A stretch of 61,764 nt of DNA, counting the filler, from Dugesia japonica (lineage: Eukaryota), in assembly GCA_001938525.1 (NCBI GenBank). It is 6 parts of 6 records of this genome, joined end to end, with 100 filler letters (N's around TTAATTAATTAA, not from the genome) between each part and the next. Parts side by side here need not be neighbours in the genome. Positions count along the whole stretch, not along the records: positions 10,012 to 22,563 come from MQRL01583170.1; 5 more parts are not named here. One strand, 5' to 3'. The position numbers were made by a program, and so were the translations under genes. Numbering within the stretch: the first letter of the stretch is position 1; the number at the start of each line of letters is the position of its first letter. This document shows, piece after piece, positions 1 through 53,339 of the stretch. The notes beneath the pieces are model-generated. The model had not been told where the DNA came from. It searched no databases and saw only the letters and a program-made list of their open reading frames with translations.

Positions 1-104
1 GAAAATAGTGATTATTTAAACAGTCAATTTTGTTTAAATAATACAAAATATATTATTCTTAAATAAATCATTAAAATCAATGTCAAGTCTTTTTACTGGC
101 AACC

Positions 105-700
105 ATGCCGAAATTAATGCGCTAACAAGAGCGAAACGCAAAGAAAGGGAAAAGATCTTTTCAAATTTTCCTAAAAAACGCAAGAAATGGTTATTCCGTA
201 ACTAAACTTTTTCGACGGTCTCAATCAATATGCGGAAGAATGGATGCACACAACAAAAGATTTTGCGACATTCAATCAAACGGAATTTACTTTCGCGTTA
301 GATATGCTGTTAAGAGGTGATGCGAAACAGTTGGAAGAATATACGTGATCAAATGATTCCATTACGAATGAGGAAGTCGTAAAATGGTTTATAGAAACCT
401 TTAAGAAGACACAATCTATTTAGGATAAAGTAAAGGAATTATCTTTAATAAAACAGAGAACTTGCGAGAAATACAGAAATTTTGAAATTCGAGTTAAGAA
501 AATGGTTACAGAGGTATTTCAAAAGAAATTAACAATATAAGAAATTGCAAGAGCATTTATTCTGCAAGGATTACAGAGTAAAAACTATGCGAATACTTTG
601 ATCTTGTCTGATAAAAGAAGAGAACTTGCAACAAATTTAGAAAAATTGGTTCCGCATCGGGAAGCGCATGTCATGAAACCAATAAATTTATTAGTAAACT
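105..700 (+). pseudogene. Ty3/Gypsy LTR retrotransposon gag-like region, degenerate
   Basis: Broken frame FFDGLNQYAEEWMHTTKDFATFNQTEFTFALDMLLRGDAKQ...IKQRTCEKYRNFEIRVKKM...AFILQGLQSK resembles retrotransposon gag; lies directly upstream of RT. Confidence 0.6.
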
Positions 701-2110
701 ACGATACCATAATTAATGACCAGAAGGGAAGGCACAATTGAATGAAGTAACTGAAAAATTTTCACTTTCCGTACACTTTTGGATACCTTAAACGGATAAA
801 CTATTTTTTCATCAATAGATTCAGGACAAGCTTATTATCAAGTTGTGTTAGACGAAGATTCATAAATGAAAACAGTCTTCAGTACAAAAATTGGACAATT
901 CTGCTTTAATCGGTTGCCGTTTGGTTTATGTACAGCACGGGGAACTTTTCAGAGTTTAATGGATTTGATTTTTAATGAAATGCTGTATAAAAATGTAATT
1001 GTTTTTTGGATGACATTTTTGTTTATTGAAGAAATGTTGATAAACAAAGATTAGAAAAAAAATTAGAATTAATTAAAGCATCAAAATTAAAAGTTAATTC
1101 AGAACTGATTAATTGCATTTTTGGGCACTTAATTAGTCAAAAAGGAATTCAAATTCACGGTGATAAAATTAAACAAATTATAGAAGTTGTTAAGATCCTT
1201 TCTGGTAATAACTAATTATTATCGTCGATTTATCAAAGATTATTCAATTTTTACTGAGCCGCTGTAAGCAATGATATGAGGAAATGAAAAGATGATTGAA
1301 TGGTCCAAAGATGCAGAAAGTAGCTTCCAGACTTTAAAGTATGAATAATGGCATTTCCTGATCCATCAAAAGAAATGAACTTTAGACACTGATGTAAGTT
1401 TTGGAGCTATTGGTGCTGTTCTAAGCCAAAAAGATTATAAAAGCGATGAAAAAGTCATAGGTTTTGCTTCGAGAATTTTAAATTCTTGCGAGAAAGGTTA
1501 TTGTATAACCAGAAAAGAACGTGCAGTTATTCATGAATTTGTTATTTGCCTTATTTAATTGGGAAAAATTAAAAATAAGGACTGACCATAAAGCTTTGAC
1601 TTATATGAAAAAAACAAATAAACCAATCAGTCCACAGTTTCAGACTTGGTTTTCTAATAGTTCTGGATTTAATATGAACGGATGACAGTAATGCTGACGG
1701 CTTGTCTAGAATTAATGAAACTCTGTTCAATCATTGTTTAACTAAACATCATGATGCTAAAGGGAATAAATCTAAAGGTCGACTTATAATCAGTTTAAGT
1801 GAAAATGTATTTCTTGACAAAAATAGTGAAAAGTTGCAAAAACAATGTGGAATACTAAGGTCAATATCACGATGGCTACACGGCTTGGATAATGATGTAA
1901 CTACTGAAGTGAAGTCAAGCAAATATTTCATAAGGATAAATAAATTTAAATTATTTGGGAATATTATAACAAAGAGAAGAAATTAATCGTTATACCAGAA
2001 AATTACTTGCACGAAGAACTATGCCATTTGGGAAGCAAGAAGTTAGTAGAATATATTAGAGAAATATACCTCTTGCCTGATATGAGTAGAAAAATCGAAC
2101 AGTCAGAAAT
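700..2110 (+). mobile_element. Ty3/Gypsy pol remnant (RT, RNase H, integrase zinc-binding start), many stops/frameshifts
   Basis: RT motifs AYYQV, KTVFST..GQFCFNRLPFGLCTARGTFQSLMD, shifted (F)LDDIFVY; RNase H LDTDVSFGAIGAVLSQ...VIGFASR...IRTDHKAL; integrase LHEELCHLGSKK. Confidence 0.92.
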
Positions 2111-2506
2111 ATGTTAGTCATTTCAACGAATAGTGATAAGAACACTTTTACTTTGTATAAATACATTCCAAAGATTNNNNNNNNNNNNNNNNNNNNNNNN
2201 NNNNNNNNNNNNNNNNNNNNNNNNNNNNNNNNNNNNNNNNNNNNNNNNNNNNNNNNNNNNNNNNNNNNNNNNNNNNNNNNNNNNNNNNNNNNNNNNNNGT
2301 AGAATTTTTTTCTGGTTTAGAATATTATATTTCGAAAATTTAAGAGTAGAAATTTTTTGATTGTTTTTTAAATTTCCTAGCTATTTTTAAGGTTTAAAAT
2401 TTTTCGGATTTTTAATTTATTTTTTGAAATTTTTAATGATTTTGAAGCTTTTAATTTAACTAAAAAAATTTTTTTTTCAAAAGTCAAATATACCCTGAGA
2501 TTTAAT

Positions 2507-3890: not shown

Positions 3891-6800
3891 ACTACGGAGC
3901 AAGCACACTACGCAATTGAAAATAACCATAACAATCCGATTAAAATCTATCTAAGCCTGATCAAACAGCATCACTGACATCTATTTCTCTTATTCACACA
4001 CTCGCAAAATTATAATTCACTCTAATTCATTTGCATACTTACATAGTGTATCATAGATTTCATAATTATACACACTTTCATTGATTTTTTAATTTCATTA
4101 TTTCTGGGACCCTCCTATCTCATTCACAGATTTCTGAGTCAGAAACCGTTGCAGTAATTTTATTTTTATAAATCACATTTTGATCATGAGTATTAATATA
4201 AAAATGAATTATTTAATGCGATTTTCTGATTAATTTTTTCTGAGAATTGCAACGGTATTTATACCAGTTTTTTTTTAAATTAAGTCTGAATACTCTTAAT
4301 GTTATAATAAATTTTATTTACATAATTTATTTAATTTAATAAATTAATTGTTTATTTTTATTTTCTTCTAAATTAATTTATTAATTAGGTTACCATTTCT
4401 CGTCTCTAAATTAAAAGTTAATTTAATTTAGGCATTTCTTTCAACAAATAATTCGTTTTATTTATTTTTTCTATCTGTAATTATTAATTAATACGATTTC
4501 TTTGTTTTTCTTAATAAATTATTTGTTCCTATTATTATTTGCCGTTTTCTTTGTCTTATGAGTAGTTAAAATATTAATTCAAATATTTTTATTCACAAAT
4601 ATTTTTATTTTGAAAATTAAAAATGAAATGTTAATAGCGAATGATGGTTCACTTTGAAATTTTTTGAAAATTTTAAATGAGATTTCTATAACAGATAATT
4701 ATTTTCTTTAAATTTTTGAATTATTTTAAATAAAGATTAAAACTAAAATTTTAAATTTATTAGAAAATGATTTCCAATTGAAGCATGGTTTTTAATTTGT
4801 TTAAATAAGCAAATAATGATGTTATAGTTTTGTTTATGAATAAATTTTGCTATGGAATCGAGTTTTGATATTAATGATCCAATGAGTACTTCAAACTCAC
4901 CTAACGAGGTTCTCTACCCCAACATTACTATGGAGAAAGAAAAAAAATTTTAAAATGTTTGAGAAATGTGCTACTTTTCAAATTTTTTAATACTTGTGTA
5001 TATTTTTAGTTCAATAAAATAATTTTTTTTGTCTTAAATTAGAAGTTCGTTTTTATTAGAGTAAATATGACAATTATTAATAATAGTTAATAATATTAAC
5101 TAATGGTTAACATCCTATGTAAAAAAATGTAACATAATCTTATTTTCTCGATTTTTTCTAGCGTTTCACAAATAAGGTGAAGCGTATTAAATTAAGTAGA
5201 AATTTACTATATTAATGGAAATTTTACTAAAATAAGGGAAATTATACTAAATGAAGGGTAAACTTACTAAAATAAGGGACAGTTTACTGACTGTCTGAAG
5301 TAAAACAATATATAGTAAAACAATACTTATTTCATTACAAGAGGCTATTTCACTGTCCACGCAATAATTATTAGTTTCAAGTCGTGCTTTCACCACCTGC
5401 AAACGTTTTAAAACCTTACTGTCAACAGCTAAAGCTCGGTGACATTTAGTCATTTCGAAATGCAAGCTATTCATTTTGAAAGCAAAAAAATTAAATCAAA
5501 TAATAATATTCTTTGTTATATGTAATATACCGGGTTAAGTCAAAGGTTATTTACATTTTTATTTAATTATTTAAATAGAAAAGAATTCGCGAAACCAAAT
5601 AATAGTCATTTCTTAAAGTTAAATGTACTGAACCGGTTGACTTGTGTAGCTACAACTTGCCACCCGTAGAATTGAGAAAAAAACCCATATTTCATTACAT
5701 GTAACTATTTGGACCAAAAATTTGCATTTCCATCAGGAGGATTTCTCTATACAAAACCGAAGCTGTACAAATGACGAACAATGGTGCTTTGTAAANGAAA
5801 TCCTCCGACAGTTTGTGTGGCTGGAAGATAGCTGCTGCGTTACCATGACACACAAGCAATAGTTAAAATATTCGAATTAATTATCATTTTATGGTTGTTT
5901 TATAAGTCAAGCGTTTATTATTATCGAATCTTGATAATCCAACAGTCGAGATTAGTCTCCATCAGTTATTAATTATACAATCTTTTATTAATTTTTTCAT
6001 TTTAAATGCTTTTAAATAATATTTTATCAATTTAGTAAACAAATATCTAGCTTATTATTATTCAAATATGTGGATTAATTTATTTTTTCATTGAAATTGT
6101 TTATTATAAAAATGACAAGTTAATCTATTTATGCTTTGAGAAAACGTTTTTGATATTATTTATGAAATGTTGTTTCGTACTTGTTCTCTACATGATTCAT
6201 ATGATATTATGATTAATAGGAAATGTTAAGATAAACCTTAAATTAATAAATTTATTGGGATGAAAATAATTGTTAAAATATTTAATTTAAAGCAATTCTG
6301 GGCAAACGTTTTCAAGCCCCGGCCCACCTAAGTAAACTTTTTTTCGTGACACAATTTATTTATTCGCAATTGAAAGCAGTACCAAAAACATTTATTTAAA
6401 TTCCTTTTGAAAAAATTTGAAAAAACATACGAATTGACAGAAAGCATAAAAATAAATTCTTATTATTCTTTATGTAAGATTGTAAAACAATGTGATTATG
6501 GCGTTGGAGTTGAAACAATTTTTCATAATTTTAAAAATGTTTTTTCGCGCCACACAATTTTACAAAAATAATCACAATATCGACAATATTTTCTAGATTA
6601 TTAACTCCAACACAATCAGAAATAATCCAAAAAAAATTTTCAAAAACCAATATTTAATTTGATTTATATTACCGTTTTTCCCAGACAATAATGGACATGT
6701 AAAGTTTCTGTTAATTATCGAGATTTTCAAAGGTCNNNNNNNNNNNNNNNNNNNNNNNNNNNNNNNNNNNNNNNNNNNNNNNNNNNNNNNNNNNNNNNNN

Positions 6801-9911: not shown

Positions 9912-10011
9912 NNNNNNNNNNNNNNNNNNNNNNNNNNNNNNNNNNNNNNNNNNNNTTAATTAATTAANNNNNNNNNNNNNNNNNNNNNNNNNNNNNNNNN
10001 NNNNNNNNNNN
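9912..10011. other. Artificial contig linker N44-TTAATTAATTAA-N44
   Basis: Exact 100-nt spacer; the 12-mer has stops in all six frames; recurs five times. Confidence 0.95.
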
Positions 10012-10450
10012 CTAGTTGGGGTGTCCAGAAAATCATATAAAAGGACCCCCAGTTTCAAATGAAATAATCACCAAATTTTCACTTTACTAAGTCGTGGAAC
10101 CACACATAAAATTTCTTTACTAGAACTTGTACGACGAGATTTGTTACAGAAGAATCGATTGCGAAGTTATAAACTCCATTGGTAAGGTCCAAAAACAATA
10201 TTAACTTTGGTCATCAACCTAATTTTAGAACTAAAGAACAAAAAAGGAAAACCGAATTTCAAACGCTATTGAGTTAAACCAGTATTGACAGATCGTACTC
10301 TCCGTAAAACATTCAAGCTCGTTGCAGAAACCTCCTCATCGACTATTCTTAGTTGCTGATTCAATCAATAGACTTATATTGGAAAGTAATTATTTTAGTT
10401 TAAATTGCATGTAAATGTTAATGCTCATCTTATGAAAAATGTTTGTCATG

Positions 10451-12060
10451 AAAATAATTAAATCATATTTTTAGTCAACTTGCATTTTATTAAACAATTG
10501 TTTTTTTACTCTTAGTTAAAATGTATGAATAACTAGCCAAAAGCTTAATTAATGAATTATAAAAAATGTCCAGTCTATATTTTATTTAACATAGTTTATA
10601 TTATATAATTGGGATACTCTTAGTTAAACTACAGACACAACTACCCAAATTAATAGATAATTTATATATTTCTTATACGGGTTGCATTTTTCTAACCGGA
10701 AATCTTATGAAATAAATTTTGAGGTTTTTAAATAAAGAATCGAACCAAAACATTCACTGGGTAATTAGGCCAATATACAGTTTGGGATGAATACAAATCT
10801 TACTAAATGATGTTGATGTTTTTTAATTACAGCATCTATTCCAAAAAAGTCTAGCCAAACCGTCGAGCGATGAATATGAAAAAAAATATGTGCCATCAAA
10901 TTCGACATTGATATCTTACTGACCCTAAACTGTCTAAAATAATGCTGATGGGTCGACTTAAAGTATGTGTCACAGTAANCTGAAAAAGAAGAATATTAAA
11001 TTTCCCCTTGAGTAGCATACCCGACTTTACCCAATTCAACCACTAAGATTGAGTCCCCTAATTGTATCATGGTGTAACGAATTGGAATAAATAATGGTTA
11101 AGATTCTACGTCGGGTAGTTATTCATCAACACTCCACTGAATATGACTGAAATGTCCACGTAATTCTGTTTCACAAAAAGAAATTGATACTAAAAAATCC
11201 GTTATGCCACGGCTGTAGTAAATTGATTTTAGGCTGTTACNNNNNNNNNNNNNNNNNNNNNNNNNNNNNNNNNNNNNNNNNNNNNNNNNNAAATAATTAA
11301 ATCATATTTTTAGTCAACTTGCATTTTATTAAACAATTTTTTTTTACTCTTAGTTAAGATGTATTAATGAATTATGAAAAATGTCCAGTCTATATTTTAT
11401 TTAACATAATTTATATTATATAATTTGGATACTCTTAGTTAAACTACAGACACCACTACCCAAATTAATAGATAATGAAAATTTTTTTATATATTTCTTA
11501 TATGGGTTGCATATTTTTTTTTTAACCGGAAATCTTATGAAATAAGTTTTGAGGTTTTTAAAATAAGAATCTAACCAAAACATTCAATGAGTAATTAGGC
11601 AAATATACAGTTTGGGATGAATATAAATCTTATTAAGTGATGTTGATGTTTTTTTTACAGCATCTACCCCAAAAAGTCTCGCCAAACCATCGAGCGATAA
11701 TAAAAAAAATATATGTGCCATCACATTCGTCATTGATATCTTACTGAACCTAAACTGTCAAACATAATGCTGATGGGTCGACTTAAAGTATGTGCACGGT
11801 AATCTGAAAAAGAAAAATATTAAATTTCCCTTGAGTATCATATTTGACTTTACCCAATTCAACCACTAAGATCTAGTTCCCTAATTGTATCATGGTGTAA
11901 CGAATTGGAATAAATAATGGTTAAGATTCTTAGTCGGGTAATTATTCATCAACACTCCACTGAATATGACTGAAATGTCCACGTAATTTTGTTTCACAAA
12001 AAGAAATTGATACAAAAAATCCGTTATGCCACGGCTGTAGTAAATTGATTTTAGGCTGTG
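10451..12060 (+). repeat. ~790-bp direct duplication (10451-11240 and 11291-12060)
   Basis: Near-identical colinear text (AAATAATTAAATCATATTTTTAGTCAAC...GATTTTAGGCTGT) either side of a 50-N gap, with scattered substitutions/indels. Confidence 0.93.
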
Positions 12061-13252
12061 ACTTATAATTGGCGATGCAATTATTAATCATAGATAATTA
12101 TCCGTGAGTACGTTTGCTCAGCGAAAACAAGAAATTCTAAACCATAACTAGTCGATATTCTATAATACTAAAACTTACAACAATTCCACTGTCAATTCGT
12201 AAGCTCGCATTAAGGGAACCAAATATTAACTCGTGAAAATAATAAGCAATTGATTCAACAATAAATGAACTAACACACATTAATTATATTAAATGGTATA
12301 CAGTTAGGCATCATAACAAAATATATCCAACAAGCAGCAGCATGAATCTATGATAGTTAAAATGTCCAACATCAGTGAATGAATTCAGTATAATCATTAT
12401 ATGATCCAAATTCGTACATCATATTCCTGAAGACGTGAATAAATAATTTAGTCAATAATCAATACCAACATACCTGAAGATAGTTTCCTGATATAAAATA
12501 TTCAGCGAAAAGCAAAACCGATGAATCCTCGAGTAGTAAAATATTCTCATAAACCAGGAGAGTTATTGTATTACCCAATTTCATAAATGACATATTTCTA
12601 AGAAATATTACTAAAATCATCTATGTATTAAATAATGTCAACATACCCGTGTGTAGAGTGGAATGCGGTGAGAATTGACTCGACACACACACTCGGAATT
12701 CCAATTAGAAAATATTGTTGTGCATGCATGATTATGACCTTGGGGCAACCAAGGGCAACTCAGGTTTTGCGGAAAGTTCAATGTATAAAAAGGAGATAAG
12801 TTGGGATAAATACATAAGATGGAACTTACTTAAAATTAATAAATCTTTTGTAAAACAATTAGGTACTATTCATAATGCGACGGGATTCTACCGGTTATTA
12901 AAAATTTAAAACTCATTTTTTATAATTAACTTATTAATAATACTAATAATAATAGTGATGGCGGTAATAAATGGTAATAATAATAATAATCATGATAATG
13001 AATAATACTATTAATGATAATAACAATATCAATGCTAACCAATAGTTCTAATCGTAATAATAATGATAATAATAATAAGGATAATAAATAATAATGATCA
13101 TAACAATCATAACAATAAATAACGACAAGGTTAACGATACTAATAATATTCGAATCAAATGATAACTCGTCTTCAGATTTCTAGGGCGTCCTCCCCTTCT
13201 AAACAATTACGTAATTTACTTGAAAAATTGCAGTAACGATTTTTTTTCAGCG

Positions 13253-13441
13253 ATGACTGCCAGATTACGAAACATGCTGAGGTGGATTAGAAAACAGGGT
13301 CAATCTGGCAGAGCTAAACAATTAGTGGCGCACTACGTGACCAAAGGGGCCGTGGAGCACTACGATGAAACGGACCTACAGTGTTTCGTCGAGATGTTTC
13401 CGCTCGTTCCGCACATTTTCACCCTTGAATGTCTCATTTAG
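13253..13441 (+). CDS. Cassette copy 1 ORF-A, orphan 62-aa protein
   Basis: MTARLRNMLRWIRKQ...RAKQLVAHYVTKG.VEH.DETDLQCFVEMF aligns with 18470-18652; acceptor tttttttcag just before ATG. Confidence 0.7.
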   Translation: MTARLRNMLRWIRKQGQSGRAKQLVAHYVTKGAVEHYDETDLQCFVEMFPLVPHIFTLECLI

Positions 13442-13564
13442 TTCTGTGTACTATTAAATAAAATAAATTTACCGTTAGATTAAATGGAGTTAATGATTGT
13501 TAGCACCGTCTTTATTACATTATATCGTTGAGTAATAATATTTATCTTTTATAGGCTTTAAGGA

Positions 13565-13927
13565 ATGGAATTTGTATGGGACGTAACTCTGGACTAACCA
13601 CTTTTAAGAAATTTAGAAATCCCTACAATCAAGACGCGGGAGTTTTAGTGGATCGCTCCAACGTGTCGTCCGAGCAGGCCGAATATGATCGTCATTGGGA
13701 CGAAACAGAGAGGGCCGCTTACTATCATTGGCGTGGTCCGAGGAGGGACAGGCTAAGTTAATCACCCACATATGATTCTGCATCCACCCCGCGTATCGAA
13801 CGGGTTTGGTCCGAAAATCCTACGATAGTTGGTCTTACTACGACCCATTTACCCCCGTATCCGCAGCTCTCGTCATTCATTCAAAATAGTTTGTGGAACG
13901 AGCGAAATGCTCTTAATTATCGAAATG
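13565..13927 (+). pseudogene. Cassette copy 1 ORF-B (frameshift/stops)
   Basis: MEFVWD..., FKKFRNPYNQDAGVLVDRSNV, SSFIQNSLWNER match MESMWE, FRRYHNPHNRDAGILVDRSNL, QAFIANMLWGVR of 18787-19137. Confidence 0.7.
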
Positions 13928-14111
13928 ANNNNNNNNNNNNNNNNNNNNNNNNNNNNNNNNNNNNNNNNNNNNNNNNNNNNNNNNNTTTTATTGATTTGAA
14001 ATTCATGTTGTTGTTCAATTAATTCATTATAATAATTCTTGGTGTCTTTAATAAAATCTTTCGCCTGAATCATGAATAAAAATTAATCATACTTTATTTT
14101 TTTTTCACATA

Positions 14112-14480
14112 GTGCATTCATCACTCAATCGTCCACCCGCTCCAACTAAGAAAATCCGGGAGGGTAGTGAGGACATAGAAATGTCCTGGAACTTATACCG
14201 GTTAGCGAAGCGGCGTTGGGAGGCCGATGTAGCAACCGCGGCCGCCAAAGTGAAAAGATATAAAGACAAATGTGCTAACATTCGACAAGAGATGAAATTG
14301 GTCCAAGAACAAGAACGGGTATGGAAAGCCCAAGTAGAATCCTTCGCGGAAATCATCCAGTCCAGCCATGACCGGGAAAATAAACTGGTGAAAGACATTG
14401 TCAATCTTAAGGATAAAATGTATCTTGAGCCTCTTATGATTGATAAGGGCACACAGACCAAAAACGTTTCACGACCATGA
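14112..14480 (+). CDS. Cassette copy 1 ORF-C, predicted coiled-coil protein
   Basis: HSSLN...WNLYRLAKRRWEADV...HDRENKLV.DI..LK...PLMIDKG aligns with 19272-19582. Confidence 0.72.
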   Translation: MHSSLNRPPAPTKKIREGSEDIEMSWNLYRLAKRRWEADVATAAAKVKRYKDKCANIRQEMKLVQEQERVWKAQVESFAEIIQSSHDRENKLVKDIVNLKDKMYLEPLMIDKGTQTKNVSRP

Positions 14481-14715
14481 TCTGATCTTTATGTATAAAT
14501 ATAAATATCACTCTTTGCTCCTTGATTGATTTGAGGTTTCAGTCTGTTGATAATTTTATAATTGTTGAAAAGTCTACTTATTAATTTGAGTTTTAAGACG
14601 GTTGTTAATCTTAGAATTGTTGGAGAAATTCTACTTTAAAGTAAATNNNNNNNNNNNNNNNNNNNNNNNNNNNNNNNNNNNNNNNNNNNNNNNNNNNNNN
14701 NNNNNNNNNNNNNNN

Positions 14716-15047
14716 GCCATCTCCTCATCGAGCGTCATTTAAAAAGAAAAGCAGATAAGGCCTTGTTAAAACATCTCGATCAACGTGACTGATTAATCAA
14801 GAAGCTTGATCTTGTCATAAAGAAGCATACAGACCTCGCAAATCAAACAAAAGCGTTAGAGACAGAAAATAAACTTCTCCTCCAACGCAAAATAGAGTTC
14901 CTCAAGCAATACATCTCCGACTTGTCGCGTCAACTGGGAAATCCCAATATATCTCAGTGGGATGACGATGACGATATCGCGGCCTTTAACCTGATCGTCA
15001 CGTCCCCTGATCAATGGCTAGATCCAGAAGCCTTGAATTTATTATAA
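14716..15047 (+). pseudogene. Cassette copy 1 ORF-D (start in gap, one internal stop)
   Basis: LLIERHLKRKADKA...QRKIEFLKQYISDLSRQLGNP...QWLDPEAL aligns with 19702-20100; AATAAA at 15061. Confidence 0.72.
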
Positions 15048-15293
15048 CTATGTATTGTCAAATAAACACTTTCATTAGAAGAATCAAGACTGGTAATTAT
15101 CGTAAAATAATCATAGGGAAATATATAGAACCCGAACAAAAGGTTTATGGGTGTGCACCTTCCATCAAGGGTAAGGTCAACCGCCATAAACTGAAAACCT
15201 ACCATAGGGACGGTAGGGTTAAATTCTTGAAAGGGTTCCCCTGAGGACTGTTTTTCCCCAGTCATCTTTTTTCCAACTCAGGTGGAGCCCCAA

Positions 15294-15295
<2 letters not shown>

Positions 15296-15340
<45 letters not shown>

Positions 15341-15390
15341 NNNNNNNNNNNNNNNNNNNNNNNNNNNNNNNNNNNNNNNNNNNNNNNNNN

Positions 15391-15449
<59 letters not shown>
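15296..15449. repeat. (TTA)n microsatellite between two element termini
   Basis: Pure TTA repeat with internal N gap. Confidence 0.97.
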
Positions 15450-15450
<1 letters not shown>

Positions 15451-15702
15451 GTTGGGGTCATGGGAGATATGGCTCAAAAATGATATTACGCACAACCCAC
15501 AACTGGGATTTAATATACTCGTCCTTGAGTATGTTGATGGCAGCCCCGGTGACTCTTACCCGACGTTAAGAGTGCATGAGCGCACTATCTGCATGTTATT
15601 TGGGCTCGTTTACCGTGGCGATAGAAGCCAATTTTTTCGATAAAATGAAATTAATATTAAATGATATTTTATAAATACTGTACATCATCATTACAAATAG
15701 GG

Positions 15703-16093
15703 TCAATCGTCATCAAAACATAAATTAATAAATGTTCGGCGGGCTTTCTTTGGAGGTGAAATACCCAATGAGGGGGATGGAGAGTCCAATTGTAATTGCC
15801 ACAAGCCCTCATTTTCGTTTCGAAGCCATTTGACCCACGCTTCTAACTTCCAAATCTTCATTCCCTGAGACTCTCCGGGTATATTCAATATTTTGTTTTC
15901 TTAAGGCTGAAACCTCTACCACTAACATCGCTATCTTTTCCTGTATAGATTTACTGGTTTGTGACCAATTTGTTGTTGTGGCAAGCTGACTGTCCGTGTT
16001 GGTGGAAAACTGAACTGCAGCTCCGAATGTTCGACTAGGACGACTGTCGAAAAGCTGTCGGTTCCGGGGCAGTTCTGGAGTGTTTTTATTCAT
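15703..16093 (-). pseudogene. Orphan coiled-coil ORF (one frameshift) reading toward the TGTTGGGG terminus at 15450
   Basis: ORFs 15809-16093 and 15703-15888 overlap as a frameshifted pair; acceptor ctttag|ATG; C-terminal basic PPKKARR. Confidence 0.5.
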
Positions 16094-16137
16094 CTAAAGT
16101 ATTTCTGAATTTTAATTAATTTATTATCACAATATAA

Positions 16138-16140
<3 letters not shown>

Positions 16141-16172
<32 letters not shown>

Positions 16173-16213
16173 TATAATAATAATCATCATAATAATAATC
16201 ATAATAATAATAA
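16141..16213. repeat. (AAT)n microsatellite followed by TGTTGGGG terminus at 16214
   Basis: Direct reading. Confidence 0.9.
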
Positions 16214-18469
16214 TGTTGGGGCGAAACACCCAGAAGAATGGAAATCAATGGGTTATGAATAACCCAATATCAAAATAGAAATTACGAGAAGCAACATGGT
16301 AAGATAAACAAGTATGGAAAATCCAGACAATAAAATTGAGCGAAAAATGGAAAACTCGGAAGATCAAATTAACTGTGATTAATTATGCTAATTGCAAAAT
16401 TAATAAAATTATTAAAGAAAATAAGTAACAAAAGAAATAAATACAAAAAAAATAAATCATTTAAACGAAAAATTAATTAAAATTGAGACAAAATCTGTTT
16501 TATGCAAATAACTCTGGTCAGGAAAGTCGGAAGAAATCCAGGTGAGACAATATGAAAAGAAAACCACAAGAGGATGAAACTTGCTAGGAAGAAAAAACTT
16601 ACCACCATCCAGAGGGTTACTGCAGGGTTTCCTATATCGAACCAATCAGATATCTAAAAATAAAATAAAACAAAGACACAATTATCATGTGCCAGTCTAA
16701 AAATAACTTCTGATCAGAACTCCAGAATTCTCGGAAGATTTGCACCAGATCCAATAGATCAAATAATTTAAATTAAAAATAACCAGCCAACAGGAATACT
16801 GTCGGGATGCAACTAAAGGCAAATATAAGCCGCAACAAACTTAGGTGAAAAAACAATAATAAAGAACTTTTAATAACAACTGAGCTTAGAAGCTATACTC
16901 TCGATTTGAAAAATTATTTAGCGAATATTACTGGTCTAAAATTATTATAAAGTTGGTAAATAAGATTCATTGTAGAATTACAGGAAGCCGANGAGAAAAT
17001 TACAATCAGGAAGGGAGAATTATTCACAAGTCAGATACTCTCAAAATTATCCGAGAATTTGCCAGTCATTGAAAAAACCTTTGCAGAAAGCCTTCAGTTA
17101 ATAACAAAAAATAAAATATTATTTTGATTGGGTAAAAGTGGTATATTTGATAAACTATGTATATTATTTATTCTAATAAAATTAGTTCCTGTTTCAAAAT
17201 CGTAAACTCTTGATTTTCTAATTTAGAAATATTGAATGATGAATAAATTATAAATCACTTGGTAAGAAACTAAATTCAAAATTCCTTGAAACCATTGATC
17301 CTTGTCGTTGAATAAAATAAATAATAGGATATGCGCGAGTATAGTAAATCAAAAAAAATCTTGTATATTTCGGGATTAATCAGAAAACAATAACCGGATT
17401 ATAGAATTTGAATAAGTTTAATCTCCTTCAATAATTTTATGATCTATGTCTAGTTGTATAATCAGATAATCAATAAGGAAAATAAATTCCAACTATTTAT
17501 TGAGAAAATTAATAAATTATAACTCCCTCCCCTTGACTTGAACTATAAATAGCCATAGAGAGCTCAGTGATAAAATAATTTCCAAAATATCAGTAACGCT
17601 CGCTGTTCAGCTAAAATCCACTTGATCATTATTGGCAGCAAAATTCCGTGACCAAACTCTGAAGGAGTGAGATATACCAAACTGGTTATGCACGATACAA
17701 AATAACCAAACTGGTTTATCTAAATTATGAAAACCCGATAGGACGACCAGGTTTGACGAATTCAGAGTCATACTATTAGCAGGTGTGTATATAATATGTC
17801 GATTTACTCATAGTAGTTATTTGATGCCGTCTACTTAAATCGGAATCCCTGATATTACACATCTACACTATATTAAATTAATAAACACACTTACCAACAC
17901 CAATAAAATCAGTATAATTAAACCACATCACTAGTCAACTACAACAAACGTAAATTCAAACTTAGTATAAAAAGGAAATTTTTTGCTGTTGTACTTTTAC
18001 TATCATTATTCTATTATTATTGATCTTGTATTAGTTATGCTAAATCAGTGTTACGGGGATTCAGAGCATTAGTAATGATGAAAGCATTTGAGCGGAATGG
18101 GGATCAACCTATTGAAGCAATCAAGGATTTAAGAAAAAAATTAATTGACTATTTATTATTCAGGATCGGCATTGTTGATACTACCCGAACTAACACCACC
18201 GGTATGGTCATGTTTTCGGTTGTCACAAGGTGTATCTTTAATAATGATTAAAATGATTTTACATTACTACATGCAATGNTGGTGACACTAATTATTACTT
18301 TTTATCCTCCTTACCAAGCTGTTATGGCCTTAATTCATAACCTCCCGTTGTGATTATAGTTTTCATGTTACAATCTTTAGCGATAATAACGGTCCGGGGA
18401 AATTATTTAATCAGGGAAAATGAGGCGAGTGGTAAAGACTGCAGTTAATTTTTTTTCTTCCTTTAGCTC

Positions 18470-18652
18470 ATGCCAACAGAATTGTATAGGGCCCTGCGAT
18501 GGATAAGGAAGCAACGTCAAATTAGCAGGTCGAAACAATTAATAGCTCATTTGCTGACCAGAGGAGAGATCGAGCACCCCGATAAAACCGACCTTCAATG
18601 CTTTGAGGAGATGTTTTCGTTGGAATTAGGGGTCGACTTAGATGAAAAATGA
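18470..18652 (+). CDS. Cassette copy 2 ORF-A, orphan 60-aa protein
   Basis: LRWIRKQ..SR.KQL.AH..T.G..EH.D.TDLQCF.EMF shared with copy 1; acceptor cttcctttag. Confidence 0.7.
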   Translation: MPTELYRALRWIRKQRQISRSKQLIAHLLTRGEIEHPDKTDLQCFEEMFSLELGVDLDEK

Positions 18653-18786
18653 TATTTTATTGACTACCCGACGATAAAACAATATCTATGAAAAAACTTG
18701 GTGTTTTGTTTTAATTAATTAGATGAGTGATTTTTGATGTTTTAATGCTGTGTTTGAATTTTCTTATTTTCTTTTGTTTCTTAGAA

Positions 18787-19137
18787 ATGGAGTCAATGTG
18801 GGAGAGGACAGTAGACAGGTGTACCCGCCGAATCATTTTCCGGCGATACCACAATCCACACAATCGCGATGCGGGGATTTTAGTAGACCGATCCAACCTA
18901 CCTCCCGTAGAAGCGGCTGTTGCTCTTATTCAAAGCTTGGTGGAGCGTCTGACCTTCCGCCAGTGGAATAGGCCGGAGCGTAACCACGCCACTCCATTCC
19001 GTTACCAACCTCCAGCTCCCACACCCATAGTTCAGGCTTTCATTGCCAATATGCTCTGGGGAGTTAGGGAGCCTTCCAGGGTAGTGAATGCGGAAAATAC
19101 GGCTCCTGTGATTGAAAATGATAATAACTCCCCATAA
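18787..19137 (+). CDS. Cassette copy 2 ORF-B, orphan ~116-aa protein
   Basis: Intact frame from MESMWERT; acceptor ttgtttcttag 2 nt before ATG; homolog at 13565. Confidence 0.7.
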   Translation: MESMWERTVDRCTRRIIFRRYHNPHNRDAGILVDRSNLPPVEAAVALIQSLVERLTFRQWNRPERNHATPFRYQPPAPTPIVQAFIANMLWGVREPSRVVNAENTAPVIENDNNSP

Positions 19138-19271
19138 GTTCTGTCTTTTACTTGAAAATATAAATAGGTGTCTTTTTATTATGATTTGTATTATAGTTGC
19201 TTGCGTGGGTTTAGATAAATTGTTGTCATTGTTGACTTTTGTAATCTTCATAATTAATACAATTATTTCAG

Positions 19272-19582
19272 TACACTCCTCTCTGAACAAATCACATGGT
19301 ACCTGTATAGATTAGCCAAACATCTTTTGGTAAGCCGATGTCACTAATGCAGAGGCGAAGATTAAGCGTTACAAAAGGAAATGTTTATCTTTCAAAACAG
19401 AAGCTGAGGCCTCTCATCAACAAGAGAGGCCACGGAAAGACCAATTAGAATCCCTGTTCGAGATTATCCGGTCCTGCCATGACCGAGAAAATAAACTGGT
19501 CAACGACATACTAAAGCTAAAGAAGATGATGCCTTTAGCTCCTCTCATGGTTGACAAAGGTGTGCAGGCCCCTCTTTCCTAG
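19272..19582 (+). pseudogene. Cassette copy 2 ORF-C (frameshifts/stop)
   Basis: HSSLNK, WYLYRLAK, ADVTNAEAKIKRYK, HDRENKLVNDILKLK, PLMVDKG; AATAAA at 19602. Confidence 0.72.
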
Positions 19583-19701
19583 TTGTTGTCATAACATGCT
19601 TAATAAAAAAAAAATTTTTTTTCCGTCTTTTCAATTAATCCGAAATTAATTACATTACTCTCTATAAATTACGAATAGCCATCGATTAATTCTTTTCTTA
19701 A

Positions 19702-20100
19702 GTGCTAATGATAAAATTTCCCAATAATTTACGTCGTTGTCATCGTATCATGAAACGACTCTTGATAGAACGACATCTAAAAAAGAAGGCTGACCAAGCC
19801 ATCCTCAAGCATTTGGCCCAAAAAGATAAGTTAATAAAGCGATTAGCCCTAGTCGTAAAGAAGCAGAGCAGACTTGGCGATTCAAACTAAGGCTTTAGAA
19901 GCAGAGACGAAACAACTTTGCAAAGGAAGATCGAATTCCTTAAACAATACATCGCCGATCTCTCCCGCCAAATAGGCAATCCAGCTTGGATTCAGTGGGA
20001 CGAAAACGACGATATCGCTGATTTTAACCTTTTGGTCACCGATCCGGCCCAGTGGTTAGACCCAGGGGCGCTGGATTTGTTAAAAATAATTTTTTTTTAA
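19702..20100 (+). pseudogene. Cassette copy 2 ORF-D (one internal TAG)
   Basis: ORFs 19702-19890 and 19918-20100 are one frame; homolog at 14716; AATAAA at 20101. Confidence 0.72.
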
Positions 20101-21488
20101 AATAAAATATATATAATTAACACCGTATTTTCTCTCTTTTACTGATAATACTAAGGAAAATAATGAACCTAAATACAAAGGTTTATGTGTGTTTACCTCC
20201 CATTAAGAGAGAGGTCAAGCGCCATGAACCGAATACCTGTCTAGGGGCGGGAGATTAAATTCTTGAATGGATTCCCCTGAGGGCTGTTTTTCCTCGGCCA
20301 CCGTTTCCTTATCATCCAACTNNNNNNNNNNNNNNNNNNNNNNNNNNNNNNNNNNNNNNNNNNNNNNNNNNNNNNNNNNNNNNNNNNNNNNNNNNNNNNN
20401 NNNNNNNNNNNNNNNNNNNNNNNNNNNNNNNNNNNNNNNNNNNNNNNNNNNNNNNNNNNNNNNNNNNNNNNNNATGGTCATGATAATATTAACAATAATG
20501 AGTAGAAATATGAATAGTGATGTTAATAGTGTTAATAATAATAGTATTAGTGTGAATTAGTAATAATATACATTGATTCTTCTTGATGGATGATATAATA
20601 TTTAAGGAGTCAAAGCATGGTTCGTAAAGTTTGTTAATGACTAGGATATTCAGGAATAAGAAACGAAAAAAACTTATTTATAACATTAATATATAATATA
20701 ATAGTCAATAGATAATAATAATAATTACGAAAACGATATTAAATCTCGATAAAGTATTTTAAAGTTAAAATATTAGAAAAATCAAAAATAACTAAATAAA
20801 CAAGGTTATTTTTCAATACATTTAATTTTTAAATATGCATAAGATTGACTAATACTAATATACCTCTTGACTGCTATGCTTGAACTGGAACAATAAATAT
20901 TGACTTGGGGATGACGAAAAATCGATAGAATTGTAATTGAATAGGATTAGGAATTTGAAACTGTATTGTTTGCTTTTCCGAATTGTTTATTCTTGGAAGA
21001 TACGAGGGATTGAGAATTTGTATTCTTGTTATGACTGAAACGAACTTAGAGCAACGATATAAATGATTTGGTGTTGGTATTGTCCAAGAGAATTTTCGAA
21101 ATAATGAAGTTTCTCGATTAAATTTGCTACTGGATGGAAATGGTATTTATACTGCGAAGTCGATGATTGATTTTGATTCTTGGCAGGTTAATTTCTTGGA
21201 TTTGCGAAATGAATGGACTACTTTCTTATGGCTAAATTGATACATGTGTCACACGCTTCTTTTTCGAAATATAGAAATAATTGATAAAATTATTCAGAAG
21301 ACTGGAAAAAACGCAATAATAATCGCATCTTATTTACTGAATCTATGAACCCCCGACAACAATCTCTCTCTCATGCTCAGTTAAAATTCAACACTTTGAT
21401 TTTACTCTAATGAAAACAATTATAATTTAAAATACTTAATCAACATCCATTTATATTTATTTCGATTTTTACTGCTTCATCACAGCAG

Positions 21489-21807
21489 TTAGACATCCAG
21501 ATCTACTGTTTGCTCCATTGTTTTGGCTGATTCTCCTGACGTCCGGTAATTCGACCACAATGTTCTCAGGGTGTGGAACATTGTGGCCTCACGGTCGGCA
21601 TATATCTTAATAACATCGGCCATAAGACGGTTGGCTTGCTGGAGAGCCAACTCCTTCTCCTTCAGCTGTGTGAACTTTGACGATGACCTATTCAGTTGTC
21701 TTTTTAAATTCAGAATCTCGTTGCGCAAATCGCGCTCTTGTCCTTCCACCTTCGCTTCGCTGCTACTACATCTCTTTTCAGTATTTTTTTGTCATTCGAT
21801 TTGTTCA
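21489..21807 (-). pseudogene. Orphan coiled-coil ORF
   Basis: EAKVEGQERDLRNEILNLKRQLNR...LKEKELALQQANRLM heptad-like pattern; GC-richer than flanks; upstream tttag acceptor. Confidence 0.45.
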
Positions 21808-22379
21808 CTAAAATTTAGACATAATTTAATTGTAATAGATTTTTCTAAAACAAGTGAATAAAATTAATTAAAAGAAATAACAATTGTAGTTTAAAGTACC
21901 TTACAAAGGAATAAAATTGTTTGCTATCTAAAGTAATTAAAATTCACTCAACATTTGTACTTTAACACAAGCAAAATAGTAACTAAATAAGATCGTTGAA
22001 ACCCTTACTTATTAATTTAATTATTAATAAATTAAACCTATAGAAATTAATGACTTTTTTAAATTACGTATTACAGTGGTTTTTATATTCAAAATCAGAA
22101 ATATCTCAATGAAGATATCGCAGTAGTGGTTGAAAAAATTTGAAATAAGCGATAGAGATAAAATTGCGAAATTATATCATAAAATTGTCATGTTAAATAT
22201 CTATGAATTAAAAATCTCTGACGATAAATATACACGTTTATATTTATATTTATAATCTCAACAATAAAAAATACTATTTCTTAATTAAATACAGCCATCC
22301 AACATATCATAGTACTAGAATTAAATGCTAGATTAAAGGGATTCGACTCTAGCTTGAGTGTATCAATTGTATGGTATTA

Positions 22380-22563
22380 ACTGTTAATATGTAGCTTCGG
22401 TGTATCATATTAAAGACCAGTTTGAACATTAATTTTTGGATCAATTGATCAAATCATCAATGCTTCACACACCACTCTATCCCAATAAACTTTAAAGTTT
22501 TTGCACAAAATTTGAAAATTATTTATACTGATAACTGATTTGCAATTAATGTTATGTTCAGCA
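22380..22563 (-). mobile_element. Penelope-like element GIY-YIG C-terminal fragment
   Basis: AEHNINCKSVISINNFQILCK...DRVVCEALMI*SIDPKINVQ fits H..C...NF.IL...R...EAL.I...P.LN.Q. Confidence 0.7.
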
Positions 22564-22663
22564 NNNNNNNNNNNNNNNNNNNNNNNNNNNNNNNNNNNNN
22601 NNNNNNNTTAATTAATTAANNNNNNNNNNNNNNNNNNNNNNNNNNNNNNNNNNNNNNNNNNNN
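22564..22663. other. Artificial contig linker
   Basis: N44-TTAATTAATTAA-N44. Confidence 0.95.
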
Positions 22664-23380
22664 AAACAACAAACTATTTTTACTAATTGCAAATATAATT
22701 ATTAGATAAATAGCTTTTTGCTTTATTAGTCCCAATTGATGAGCAGCTAGTACTGGCGGCTCAACACGTACACGTCTAACCAATAATTTGTCATCTAGTA
22801 ATACATATTTAGGTTCATTGGCTGCAGATTCCAAAAAAATCTTAGAAGATGATCGTTTTACTCGAATATGGACATTAATACCTATAATAAGGTATTTCGG
22901 TTGATCCATGAAATTGAGTTGCAATAAACCCCATAGAGACAATTGTTTGGATGTTTTAATAGACTTTTTTTCTATCTCCTTCTGATCCACATCCCATTGC
23001 TGCAAGATAGATATTCTTACTATCACCATTATTATTTTTTATAGTTTCAATTAATGCTTTGTAAAGATAAGATCCATTATCACCTTCAATTTTGAAATTA
23101 TTAAACGAAAGAATTACATCCTTAAAAAGTGTATGCAACATATAGCTACTAAGAATAGCTATGTGAATTTCTACGTTTTCTATGAGTTGGTATTGTTTTT
23201 TGTTGATTTAATAGCAAATTAGTTATTTCAGATAGTATTTGATTTGTCATAATTTGCGCTAATATGTTTGCTACTTTTGTAATCATAATGATTACTCCAA
23301 TAGGTAACGATGACACTACATTTCCAGGTTCAACTAATGCATTGGATTTTAATGTTGGTAGAATTTTCCATCATCAGCTA
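22664..23380 (-). pseudogene. Polinton/Maverick major capsid protein (PY) remnant
   Basis: LHTLFKDVILSFNNFKIEG.N.SY.YKALIET, L.G.LQLNFMDQPKYL..G, LLVRRVRVEPPVLAAHQLGL...AIY; paralogous to 51.7-52.7 kb. Confidence 0.85.
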
Positions 23381-29105: not shown

Positions 29106-30439
29106 TGTTATTGTTTATGTAATTATGTTATAAAATAAATATTATTCAAGAAAATCATTTAATTTCCTTATTATTTTAATAATATTCTTTTAAAAAAAGA
29201 ATAATATAGCTGTGCTAGAACACCAATTGTGAAACGAGAAAAATAATTTAAAATAGTTAGTCTTAACAAAAATGTAAAGAAATATAAAATATAACGAAAA
29301 AAGAAATCAGAATTTATAATATAAAGTTACCAAAGGAAAATATATGTAAATGAAAATAAATGAGAATAAAACAAGTGCTGGACCAGCAAATTGAATACCA
29401 TTATTATTATTAGCATTATTATTAGCATAATTATTAGCATAATTATTATATTATTATTATACATATTATGAAATGATTATATGGATTCCGAGAAACGAAA
29501 ATTTTTGGAGGAGAGGACTCTAATTTTGAAGCAGGAAATAATTTTGTAGATAAATGAATAAGTAATAATAAGATAAATAAGTAATGAAATAAATAATAAA
29601 AGTAAGCAACATTTCTATAATAACATATTAGAGGACCTCTACGGTCATTTTATTTAATATAGTAATCATAATTACCTTTAATTTGCATTAATTAATGCAA
29701 TAAACAAGTGGTCTAGTAACTGAGATTATACAATTTTCAAAATGCTGAATCACACGAAATTCAACAAAAACCAAGATAGCTAACAAAGAAAGTTAGCATG
29801 ACAATGAGTGGTAAAATTTAAATTGAATGAAAATGTTTGGAAAAAAAGCAACTTAAATATAAATTGCAATTATTGCAAGAATAATTGTTGGACGTAACCA
29901 TTAATCGTTTTTTAGAATTCATTTAAAATAAAATTTCGATCAAATTTGATTTTTTTGGTTTTTGATAACAATTCTATATTTCGACTTTTATCATTTATTA
30001 TATTACCAAATCTAAATGCATGGTAATAGAACATTAAATTTTGTTTATATTGTATGCTCATTGCATGTTCATGACATGTATGAAGCATATACACAACATG
30101 TATATATTATGATAATAATAACAACAATGAGAATAACATTAAAAAAATTTTCTTTTTAAAAAAATAAATAAAACATCACATTTGGTCCTAAAGAGGACCG
30201 GTTTAATCATTCTCAATTGTTTTTTTAATACAAATATATACATTTTTCTTTCTTTTGTTTCTTTCTGAAATAGAAATAATTAAATATCATTAANATAAAA
30301 TAAATAAAAACATGTATAGCTGATGTTTATTAGGCTGGATCGAATGACTTTTTTTACGAGAAACCGCATTATTTTATTTTATATTGTTCCTAAGGTACAC
30401 TTTCATTTCCCCCTAACAAATACCTCTTATTATTTTCTT

Positions 30440-31030
30440 CGATTTTACTAGTGATCCTAAATGGAAATACGGATACCTATTGGTTCTCATTGTAACAGTC
30501 AANGTATGGCTGTTTAGAAATACTTGTGTTTTTTAGTGTTATACCTTTAGCTTTCATACTTTTCTTTTCGCTATGCATGCTATGGCACTTCGGTCTCAGG
30601 AACACCAATTCTCGATACCTATTCTCATTGTTCTCATTTTTAAACTTTCCGATGAATGAATTANNNNNNNNNNNNNNNNNNNNNNNNNNNNNNNNNNNNN
30701 NNNNNNNNNNNNNNNNNNNNNAATGATAAAAAGATTTCTAATTTATCCCAGTTATCCCAAGCAAAAAGCTGTCAGAATCGCCAGCTACAATATGTATTTT
30801 ACAGGTTTCTTCTTTGCTGTACTTCTCGAACTTGATGTACTGTAGTTGGTACATCCATAATTTTCTCAAGTCAAGTACACATTATCCAATGTAACTTAGG
30901 CGATCTAAACATACTGACTCCTTATTCATTAAAGTCGCTATTAGTTCCGCGTCAGGCTTGATGGATTTTCGAAAGCCGGGGTTTAGATGCATATGTTATC
31001 AGCTTTTTGTTTATGTTACGTAATTGTAAA
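30440..31030 (-). pseudogene. Polinton protein-primed DNA polymerase B, C-terminal remnant
   Basis: LDRLSYIG*CVLDLRKLWMY, IVAGDSDSF (DTDS motif), GKFKNE...ELVFLRPKCHS...KAKG. Confidence 0.88.
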
Positions 31031-31069
31031 AATATTCTTAGAAAATACTTCATTTCATTTGAATTTTCT

Positions 31070-31500
31070 TCTTGATTAACTATTTGTGATGATAATATCC
31101 AACTTGGTCTTTCGTACCCATGCCATTTTACATAGTATTGTTTATTCTTTCCGGTTTCTTTTGATTTGATGATGTTTTCTATTCTATATATCTCTGGTGG
31201 CGTAATGACTTGTAATTCTTGTTCATAGAATTTCCTTTGCACAATATTATCTTAATAATCTTTAATAACATACATGGCTGGATTTTGTTTCGTGATGATC
31301 TTTGTTATTTGAAACACTTCACAACTTCAATTACTATTAAATTTCTTGATAATTGATGAAGCTTATATTTTTGAGATTTTAACATGATCACCAGCTTTAT
31401 ATTTTGGTTTTTGTTTTGCTTTTNNNNNNNNNNNNNNNNNNNNNNNNNNNNNNNNNNNNNNNNNNNNNNNNNNAACTTACGTCAATCGGTCTTGTTCCAT
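31070..31500 (-). pseudogene. Polinton integrase C-terminus with chromodomain
   Basis: PKYKAGDHVKISK, FQITK...P.MYVIKD..., KFYEQELQ, YRIENIIK...QYYVKWHGY...SWI. Confidence 0.88.
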
Positions 31501-32066: not shown

Positions 32067-32166
32067 NNNNNNNNNNNNNNNNNNNNNNNNNNNNNNNNNN
32101 NNNNNNNNNNTTAATTAATTAANNNNNNNNNNNNNNNNNNNNNNNNNNNNNNNNNNNNNNNNNNNN
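32067..32166. other. Artificial contig linker
   Basis: N44-TTAATTAATTAA-N44. Confidence 0.95.
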
Positions 32167-32472
32167 TTAGAAAATAATTATTTTTAAAATGAAATGTTCA
32201 GATATATTTCAAAATAAACGATGAAAGTAAGAGTATTTTTTATCAAAATATTGTTTTAAAAAAAAATGATATTAATTTCGTCATTTTAATCTGATTTTTG
32301 TCAAATTTATAACATGAATTCATGTAAAAATATCAGGTTTCATTACGTTTTCTAAAGGTTTCAGTGTATCGTTTACAGTGCTTTTGTTTTAAACAATNAA
32401 ATTAAAGTTTTTCAATTTTTACTGATTCAATCTTGAAAAAAATAAAAAATAGTATTGAGTGAATCTTCTTAC

Positions 32473-34126
32473 TTTAGACCATTCACTATATATCCATTTC
32501 GGACAAGAGGATTCTTCGCATTTACGTAGTGTGATCGGCTTGGTTAAATTAGCACATCTATTGTTATCATTCCACCAAACAATAGTATTATTAATATTTC
32601 TATAGCCACATTTGAAGGATCTTTGTTGAATTCCTTCGCCACAAGAAACTGAGCACTAGAAAATATTTTGAAAATTTTATATTTCAAAATTGTTTAGATT
32701 ACTTTATTCCAAGGTAGTTTTATCCAAAACGATTCGATAAAACAAAGCTTCAATAAACATGGGATAACAATGTTTTCTGGTTTTGAGAGATTATACTTCA
32801 AACAGTAGCCGTCATCAACCGAATAAGTAATGGATCTTTGATTGGTTTTTTTCATACACACATAGCTCTGAATTTTGAAGCCCGAACCACAAGTTGTGGA
32901 ACACTGTTCCATAAAATTGATAAAAATCAAAATAAGCATATTTAAATTGCTTACTTTTCCTGTTTTATTTCGTATCCAGTGAAAACAACCATCAAGAGAA
33001 CATGGCCTTTCATCGACTGGTTTAACTGAATGAATGTCACAAAATGCATCTGATATTTGTTCATGTTCTTTCAAAAAATTCTCATCAACATATTTATCAG
33101 ATTGTTTGATCTCTTCAGATCTGAAACAATAAACGAAACGTTTCTGTTGTTCGTTCTCACAAATTTGAGAACATTTCGACCAAGGTGAAGTTACCCATCT
33201 CGTTAAATTGTGACAATTCCTATAAGATAAGCAAGTTTCTTTATTATCTGGATAACCCAAATAATTTAAACAAATTTCATTTTGCCATGTTCTTCCTTGA
33301 CTATCTTTACATATATATGGTCGATAACGAAAACTTGTACCACATTCGATTGGGCACTAAATTGAAAGTTATTTTGAATTTTACTTGTTTATAATTATTT
33401 ATNNNNNNNNNNNNNNNNNNNNNNNNNNNNNNNNNNNNNNNNNNNNNNNNNNTTGTTTATAATTATTTATATATATATATATATAATTATATTTATAATT
33501 ATATATATAATTATAATTATAATCTTTAAAATAAAACTATAAAACAACTTGTTCCCAATCTCCATAAGACCATAGCAATGGATTACATTGACCCATGCAG
33601 TTGTGGTCTTCATACTGTTGTCCTATTAATTCTGCAGAATAACATTGACTGTCATCAACAGCTTCCCACTGATGAAAAATTTCATCGGTGGCCATGTTTT
33701 TCTCACATAAGTACCAAATTTTGATTTTTCCATTACCACATCGTACAGGACAAGAATTAGTTATTGTATTGTTAATGTAATGTTCACTAGGCCTTTGCCA
33801 TCTATATCCACACAGAGAACTGCATTTTATGATTTTCGGTTTTGGCTTAGATGATTGAAGACAATAAAAATCCAAAACACGATAGTTTTCAAGCTTCCGA
33901 AAACATGCTGGATTATTTTCAATAAAACCTATAAAACTGGAATATTAAAATACTTCAAATACATTATGTAATTTTAAAGCATTCAAAGTTATAAAATATT
34001 AATTTAATCGTCTTATTTTTCAGAATAAATTCATTTAAACTACATTTTACTTATTTAATTCACCAAAATCTAAAGATAATTCATTTTATTTTATTTGATT
34101 ACCCAAAAATGATGATGATGGTGATG

Positions 34127-34181
<55 letters not shown>

Positions 34182-34231
34182 NNNNNNNNNNNNNNNNNNN
34201 NNNNNNNNNNNNNNNNNNNNNNNNNNNNNNN

Positions 34232-34297
<66 letters not shown>

Positions 34298-53213: not shown

Positions 53214-53339
53214 TTTTGCATGGTGGCATCTTATTACACGGTTAATATGCAAACCATATACTCATAAACCCTATACAATCATGAAAAATATTTTGTTCTC
53301 AGAAATATTCTCAACCAATATGTTTTCTAATAAAACTTT

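Follow-up and report, generated by a model that had tools for sequence, protein, structure and literature searches.

Octamer-tipped ends of abundant repeats on AAT tracts in Dugesia japonica: probable LTR ends of giant Gypsy elements with a row of tiny conserved genes

The octamer TGTTGGGG/CCCCAACA closes three repeats that lie flush against AAT microsatellite tracts in a stretch of 61,764 nucleotides of Dugesia japonica DNA, filler included, which was analysed as a whole and is referred to here as the window. The three tract-abutting octamers are the ends of very abundant repeats and are not chance occurrences. The feature is real, and the ends are probably LTR ends of giant Gypsy elements that nest in AAT tracts and carry an unusual row of tiny conserved genes. 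In the specific form towards which we lean slightly, the octamers mark where an integrase attaches to the multi-kilobase LTRs of giant, Burro-like Gypsy elements; this integrase would enter (AAT)n with a predicted 4-bp duplication, TTAT/ATAA. The claim of AAT targeting rests on one cluster.

The window is AT-rich and consists of six scaffolds of ~9-12 kb each, joined by 100-base linkers. Features on either side of a linker are therefore not neighbours, and the octamer at 4917 lies on a different scaffold from the cluster near 15 kb, which is located on scaffold 10012-22563. Because a 50-N gap interrupts the central tract of this cluster, the adjacency of the elements termed X and Y rests on scaffolding, each junction having been sequenced separately. 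The features are collected in Table 1. We also note that 10452-11240 and 11291-12062 are 89%-identical tandem copies on either side of a 50-N gap; the assembly has likely placed two haplotypes one after the other.

Table 1. Features of the octamer cluster and of the assembly, in coordinates of the window
Feature	Position	Strand	Remarks
Fourth octamer, candidate end	4917-4924	-	Different scaffold, without tract
Candidate left end of X	10014-10021	+	7/8 octamer match at scaffold start
Degenerate (AAT)n tract, likely internal to X	12935-13150	+	Immediately precedes the small genes of X
ORF a, copy A	13253-13441	+	62 aa; shares 53% identity with its counterpart in copy B
ORF b, copy A	13576-13761	+	Decayed
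ORF c, copy A	14181-14480	+	99 aa, coiled-coil-like, no family
ORF d, copy A	14721-15047	+	Start inside N gap; one stop within the frame
Conserved subterminal module of X	15140-15287	+	Three hairpins predicted; the repeat is at its most abundant here
Right end CCCCAACA of X	15288-15295	+ (octamer -)	Directly followed by (TTA)n; outward register TTA
Perfect ATT arrays	15295-15340 and 15391-15450		Halves of (TTA)n tract 15296-15449, with 50-N gap 15341-15390 between
TGTTGGGG end of Y	15450-15457	+	Octamer match; abuts ATT array
Subterminal module of Y	15458-15635	-	Copy number very high; like X and B, has a 6-bp stem ahead of TTAAAT
ORF of Y	15809-16093	-	94 aa; ATG directly after acceptor-like AG; reads toward the 15450 end
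AAT array, 89%	16137-16214		Abuts the Z end
Left end TGTTGGGG of Z	16214-16221	+	Outward register TTA; interior A-rich
Candidate complete unit of 4.1 kb, consisting of Z and copy B	16214-20321	+	No N run inside
Copy B	18460-20321	+	~70% DNA identity to copy A, 5 kb away
ORFs of copy B	a 18470-18652, b 18787-19137, c to 19582, d to 20100	+	c and d broken
Stem and TTAAAT sites	15196-15222, 20234-20258, 15514-15531		One in each of the three end modules
Degenerate tract of AAT polarity, right of gap	20474-20560		Likely second half of the tract at 16137
Coiled-coil frame, possibly upstream gene of Y	21489-21791	-	100 aa
Identical linkers	9912-10011, 22564-22663, 32067-32166, 40965-41064, 53114-53213		44 N, 12-base all-frame-stop word, 44 N

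Across the window the octamer was counted four times, whereas 100 shuffles contained it 0.59 times on average and 3 times at most, and its three flush contacts with (TTA)n or (AAT)n at 15295, 15450 and 16214, reported in a preliminary description of this DNA, are confirmed. A match of 11/12 to an AAT phase follows only 698/116,502 positions. The probability that at least three of four octamers stand flush with a tract is 9e-7, a value valid only for independent sites, and the three junctions are not independent because all fall within 930 bp in one cluster. Three of the ten outer borders of the five tracts compared carry the octamer and seven do not; it is absent from the borders of tracts 34127-34295, 29400-29460 and 12935-13118. 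The fourth case of the preliminary description stands as an octamer but not as a tract junction, since its flank agrees with a tract at 5/6 bases only. The candidate end at 10014 shows no similarity to the Z end (p 0.19).

The abundance of the repeats was read as summed contig depth in three DNA runs over 12100-20320, which is not a copy number; the two highest-depth bins leave out the tracts. This depth reaches 219k-390k at 15125-15399 (subterminal module of X) and 143k-317k at 15400-15674 (subterminal module of Y), and amounts to 5k-79k across ORFs a, c and d of copy A and to 2k-7k for the first 560 bases of Z. Every bin of 16214-20321 is multi-copy, at a depth of 73 or more. Contigs identical to the locus have a depth of only 8-24; as a rough figure from the three runs, the repeats lie ~10^2-10^4 times above them, an order of magnitude that points to hundreds to thousands of copies. 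The consensus of loose ends in two runs enters ATT-like sequence ~45 nt before the octamer (agreement 0.78-0.85); some copies may therefore end differently, which counts against a universal octamer. None of the runs listed as containing this sequence is recorded as RNA, and the RNA reads (389 placed, 94% partial, mostly at end modules) are uninformative on this locus.

Inward of the octamer the ends have little in common. They are identical for the 8-9 terminal bases only, in 6/6 pairwise comparisons, and the first 40 bases hold 13-22 identical positions in each of the six pairs. The earlier observation that each end is backed by a different internal sequence is thus borne out, and the proposal of several diverged families with a common octamer gains support. 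As the ends are alike for only 8-9 nt, they appear to be LTR tips rather than terminal inverted repeats (TIRs). The flanks at all ends consist of A and T only. A hairpin closing on the octamer was rejected as a general feature, being significant in 1/6 ends. The start of the ends, TGTTG, satisfies the pattern TGTNR, which is common to the 5' ends of Gypsy and Ginger (passages of PMC2836005), in line with the TG...CA signature pointed out earlier.

On the preferred reading the octamers would be integrase attachment sites at the tips of multi-kilobase LTRs, which the integrase would insert into (AAT)n in either orientation, cutting the double-stranded tract in one register. The LTRs would carry internal AAT tracts that act as landing pads for relatives; since the elements appear to carry such tracts, the pile-up looks like relatives nesting and not like a neutral host tract. 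X (+) and Y (-) would then face each other over one tract, and slippage may have lengthened the tracts after insertion. The 4.1-kb unit 16214-20321 is likely a solo LTR. It would have been inserted into a tract inside Y, this order of nesting being the one suggested by the layout: the (AAT)n tract 16137-16213 is likely internal to Y and the target of the Z-B insertion, judging from the flanking ORFs, and both flanks of the unit have AAT polarity. The right terminus of the unit is ambiguous, at or inside the 152-N gap 20322-20473; a reading in which B closes with a compensated terminus was withdrawn, as its last bases may equal an internal stretch of X. Neither reverse transcriptase (RT), integrase, primer-binding site nor polypurine tract was found by any end in the 12.5-kb scaffold (Pfam over the frames scanned). 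Paired direct LTRs around gag-pol were not found there either; solo LTRs and outer ends are expected to be without all of these.

The four small ORFs of X all read toward its end at 15295. Comparison of copies A and B over 263 codons yields a pS of 0.79 and a pN of 0.26 (Fisher p 3e-35), a difference from which the small ORFs are taken to be real genes; by this codon comparison they are under purifying selection. An acceptor-like AG stands 0-70 nt ahead of the ATG at 7/8 starts examined, ORF d of B being unclear, and the genes may be expressed via splicing to these sites. Complex retroviruses, to which this arrangement can be likened, carry accessory genes in the LTR region. The products have no recognizable family. 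Pfam gave nothing but sub-threshold coiled-coil matches for the small ORFs, a search of ORF c among 1.84 billion proteins returned one chance-looking repeat protein, and ORF d gave no match by sequence or fold. Structural matches to the predicted model of ORF a (three helices, pLDDT 66) neither exceed Z 4.4 nor reach E 0.001, and they lend no support to a CARD-like identity. The subterminal module of X folds more stably than expected (z -2.5, 0/200 shuffles as stable), and a subterminal motif has 0 matches in genome contigs and in viral contigs.

A bolder version, which we hold to be rather unlikely, is that of an undescribed virus-like lineage, whose multi-kilobase ends bear operon-like rows of tiny, family-less, splice-led genes together with their own AAT landing pad. 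Its integrase would home on the pad in a fixed register, and its families would nest within themselves and seed the AAT microsatellites that fragment the genome.

The outward flanks read TTA (three) or ATA (one) and show no other register. Among duplication lengths of 1-10, only 1, 4, 7 and 10 reconcile these registers, and 5 or 6 fail; this is weak evidence for compatibility with a single 4-bp target duplication, TTAT/ATAA, as agreement has a chance level of 1 in 9 (1 in 27 if 4917 is counted). Gypsy elements have target duplications of 4-6 bp. A target duplication on a single copy was not observed, the gap at 20322 hiding the second end, nor was an empty site observed directly. An unlikely alternative dispenses with targeting: the elements themselves would end in AAT...ATT, as inverted tips that are copied with the rest of the element, and the octamer would be just the inner border of the tip. 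The outward TTA at 3/4 junctions is what inverted tips would give, and the apparent internal AAT tracts of the elements would suit this model as well. Burro-1 reportedly terminates in AAT/ATT microsatellites, which also speaks for it. Against it stand the 15450 end, with 60 perfect bases of opposite polarity, and the site at 4917, which has no tract.

Y is possibly a distant relative of X, placed tail to tail with the same type of end in opposite orientation. The end of Y is weakly collinear with those of X and B (p ~0.002 in three scoring schemes), while the other three ends give p 0.09-0.86 in the same test. Among 1,221 frames, the ORF c profile ranks 21489-21791 as the best non-self frame (E 1.2) and the ORF d profile ranks the Y ORF second (E 4.6), neither being significant, and a held-out HMM and CM, each trained on X and B only, do not recover Y. 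X, B and Y have a 6-bp stem of differing sequence before TTAAAT, 64-77 nt from the end (background 31/269), possibly a conserved RNA or DNA signal. By eye, contig variants seem to retain the stem before TTAAAT. No tRNA was found at the locus; Rfam gave 6 hits up to a limit of E 5, none of them meaningful or a hammerhead.

The weak collinearity of X and Y could also reflect decayed inverted ends, as would be expected if the octamers closed a large linear DNA element, or an endogenous virus with a DNA genome, that carried numerous small genes and was integrated by an AAT-targeting, Ginger-like DDE enzyme. We consider this decidedly unlikely. Many small, separately started genes suit the layout of a DNA virus, the lack of a nearby RT is in keeping with it, and the endogenous nimaviruses of sesarmids provide a precedent, having a Ginger2-like DDE integrase, an (AT)n target, a 46-bp TIR and a length of 265-285 kb (passages of PMC10871703). 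In that documented case an element with several genes is inserted into a microsatellite by a DDE integrase, which makes it a precedent for the preferred reading too; in contrast, the present ends show (AAT)n, 8-bp tips, an apparent unit of 4 kb and no visible integrase. An apparent complete unit of just 4.1 kb, the lack of any TIR of 40 bp or more, and the lack of viral homologues of the small ORFs by sequence or fold weigh against a DNA element.

The Ginger identity raised in the preliminary description fails for lack of a TIR and because of the target. Ginger1 and Ginger2/TDD, as described in passages of PMC2836005, have TIRs of 40-270 bp, CCGG/CCGT or RTATAY targets and a transposase. They resemble the present ends in TGTNR, and their 4-bp duplication matches the predicted one. 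For Ginger1, a 40-270 bp TIR is at odds with the 13-22/40 identical bases and CCGG/CCGT with the A/T flanks; for Ginger2/TDD, no TIR of ~50-180 bp is present and the implied core is TTAT, not the TATA of RTATAY. The frames scanned contain no integrase-like transposase, which non-autonomous copies would lack.

That the genes run toward the octamer in X as well as in Y, and that the stem precedes TTAAAT 64-77 nt from the end in X, B and Y, could be explained if the octamers were the 3' ends of non-LTR or Penelope-like retroelements. The tract would then be a tail or nicked target, and the hairpins an RNA signal for the reverse transcriptase. To this we give little credence. Both tract polarities occur among the junctions, which argues against a templated tail, and the polarities at X and Y differ; Z reads inward and is continuous with B; RT and endonuclease are absent within 2 kb of the X end; and the Rfam hits include no hammerhead. 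Dong inserts in TAA repeats. An R4/Dong-type non-LTR element was rejected, as only small non-RT ORFs are present and both TTA and ATA registers occur, with no tail of fixed polarity. Penelope-like elements are marked by an RT/GIY-YIG ORF, a pLTR and, in many cases, a hammerhead. They favour microsatellites and form inverted pairs (passages of PMC8557442); no RT near the ends and no hammerhead were found here, though many such elements are without a hammerhead according to the same passages. Microsatellite-targeting non-LTR and Penelope-like elements resemble the present case in simple-repeat insertion and inverted neighbours (passages of PMC4640811 and PMC8557442), and are unlike it in target-primed reverse transcription, an RT near the 3' end and, as described there, no fixed TG...CA tips.

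Viral contigs contain the junction motif at 3 loci, and metagenome contigs at a further 47. None of these 50 loci is homologous to the window beyond the bare repeat, the 16 ORFs neighbouring 9 of them include no RT or integrase, and the end model has 0 matches in 40 of the 50. In metagenome contigs at L005:2506-2528, L044:4398-4420, L015 and L020, the octamer-tract string ends short repeats with a common upstream and different downstream sequence, like retroposon tails, with no similarity to the window; the strings with variable downstream flanks in L005 and L044, although in unrelated contigs, count in favour of 3' ends of retroelements.

A short-read scaffolding artefact via collapsed microsatellites is very improbable: the 50-N placeholder inside the tract, the many gaps and joined scaffolds, the tandem duplication across another 50-N gap and the lack of any contig bridging the central tract in the three DNA runs could account for X facing Y but not for the junctions, each of which is contiguous sequence, and Y, the 16137 tract and Z are joined gap-free, with difference-free contigs covering parts of 17905-18307 and 20039-20301 in the three runs.

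Several other features were noted in the window. A decayed Gypsy-like pol remnant lies at 1-2176 (+); its RNase H-like motifs were judged by eye. At 59528-61762 (-), long broken frames combine a charged stretch of coiled coil with a hydrophobic stretch resembling an envelope protein, with no Pfam match above cut-off; they could be a fragment of a giant-retroelement polyprotein. Exons of an ADAMTS-like gene with TSP1 and spacer domains occupy 32452-34709 (-), 50-62% identical to the only homologue found, P0001, and the AAT tract 34127-34295, without octamer, is intronic in this gene. A chromo domain at the Pfam cut-off at 30952-31251 (-), a frame of capsid-like appearance at 52415-52723 (+) and a 75% repeat pair (22699-23155 and 51835-52254) are possible Polinton remnants. 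Dense minisatellites of 12, 28 and 31-32 bp are found at 42444-42990, 47518-48703 and 53324-58910.

The preferred reading, that of Burro-like giant Gypsy LTRs, has its closest known counterpart in Burro itself. Burro elements are giant and Gypsy-like, with thousands of copies, accessory ORFs and tandem repeats, and decayed Burro fragments occur in Dugesia japonica (section 7 of PMC6431247). Burro/GYPSM1 of dugesiid planarians, as described, resembles the present repeats in its thousands of copies, multi-kilobase terminal regions, accessory ORFs, tandem repeats and AT-rich host and, reportedly, in AAT/ATT at the ends; gag-pol is not seen here, and the likeness is one drawn from descriptions. 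The account of Burro in section 7 of PMC6431247 mentions neither terminal octamers, target choice nor tiny acceptor-led genes near the ends. The termini are likewise not described in passages of PMC8532177, PMC11410931, PMC10175614, PMC13238120, PMC13309565 and PMC9341512. We found no published description of them; Grohme 2018 (Burro) may cover them, and if AAT flanks have already been described for Burro, the addition made here is that of mechanism and anatomy.

Non-LTR elements, among which strict sequence targeting is common, are an established case of microsatellites used as landing pads (passages of PMC4640811), and such use has been discussed for plant elements (passages of PMC12477314). 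The tiny conserved genes with no known family form a second lead. To our knowledge, strict sequence targeting has rarely been shown for retroviral-type integrases in animals. If giant Gypsy elements do insert into AAT repeats in a fixed register, with relatives that carry such tracts themselves, this would explain nested repeat islands and microsatellite-linked assembly breaks, and would point to an integrase with natural simple-repeat specificity.
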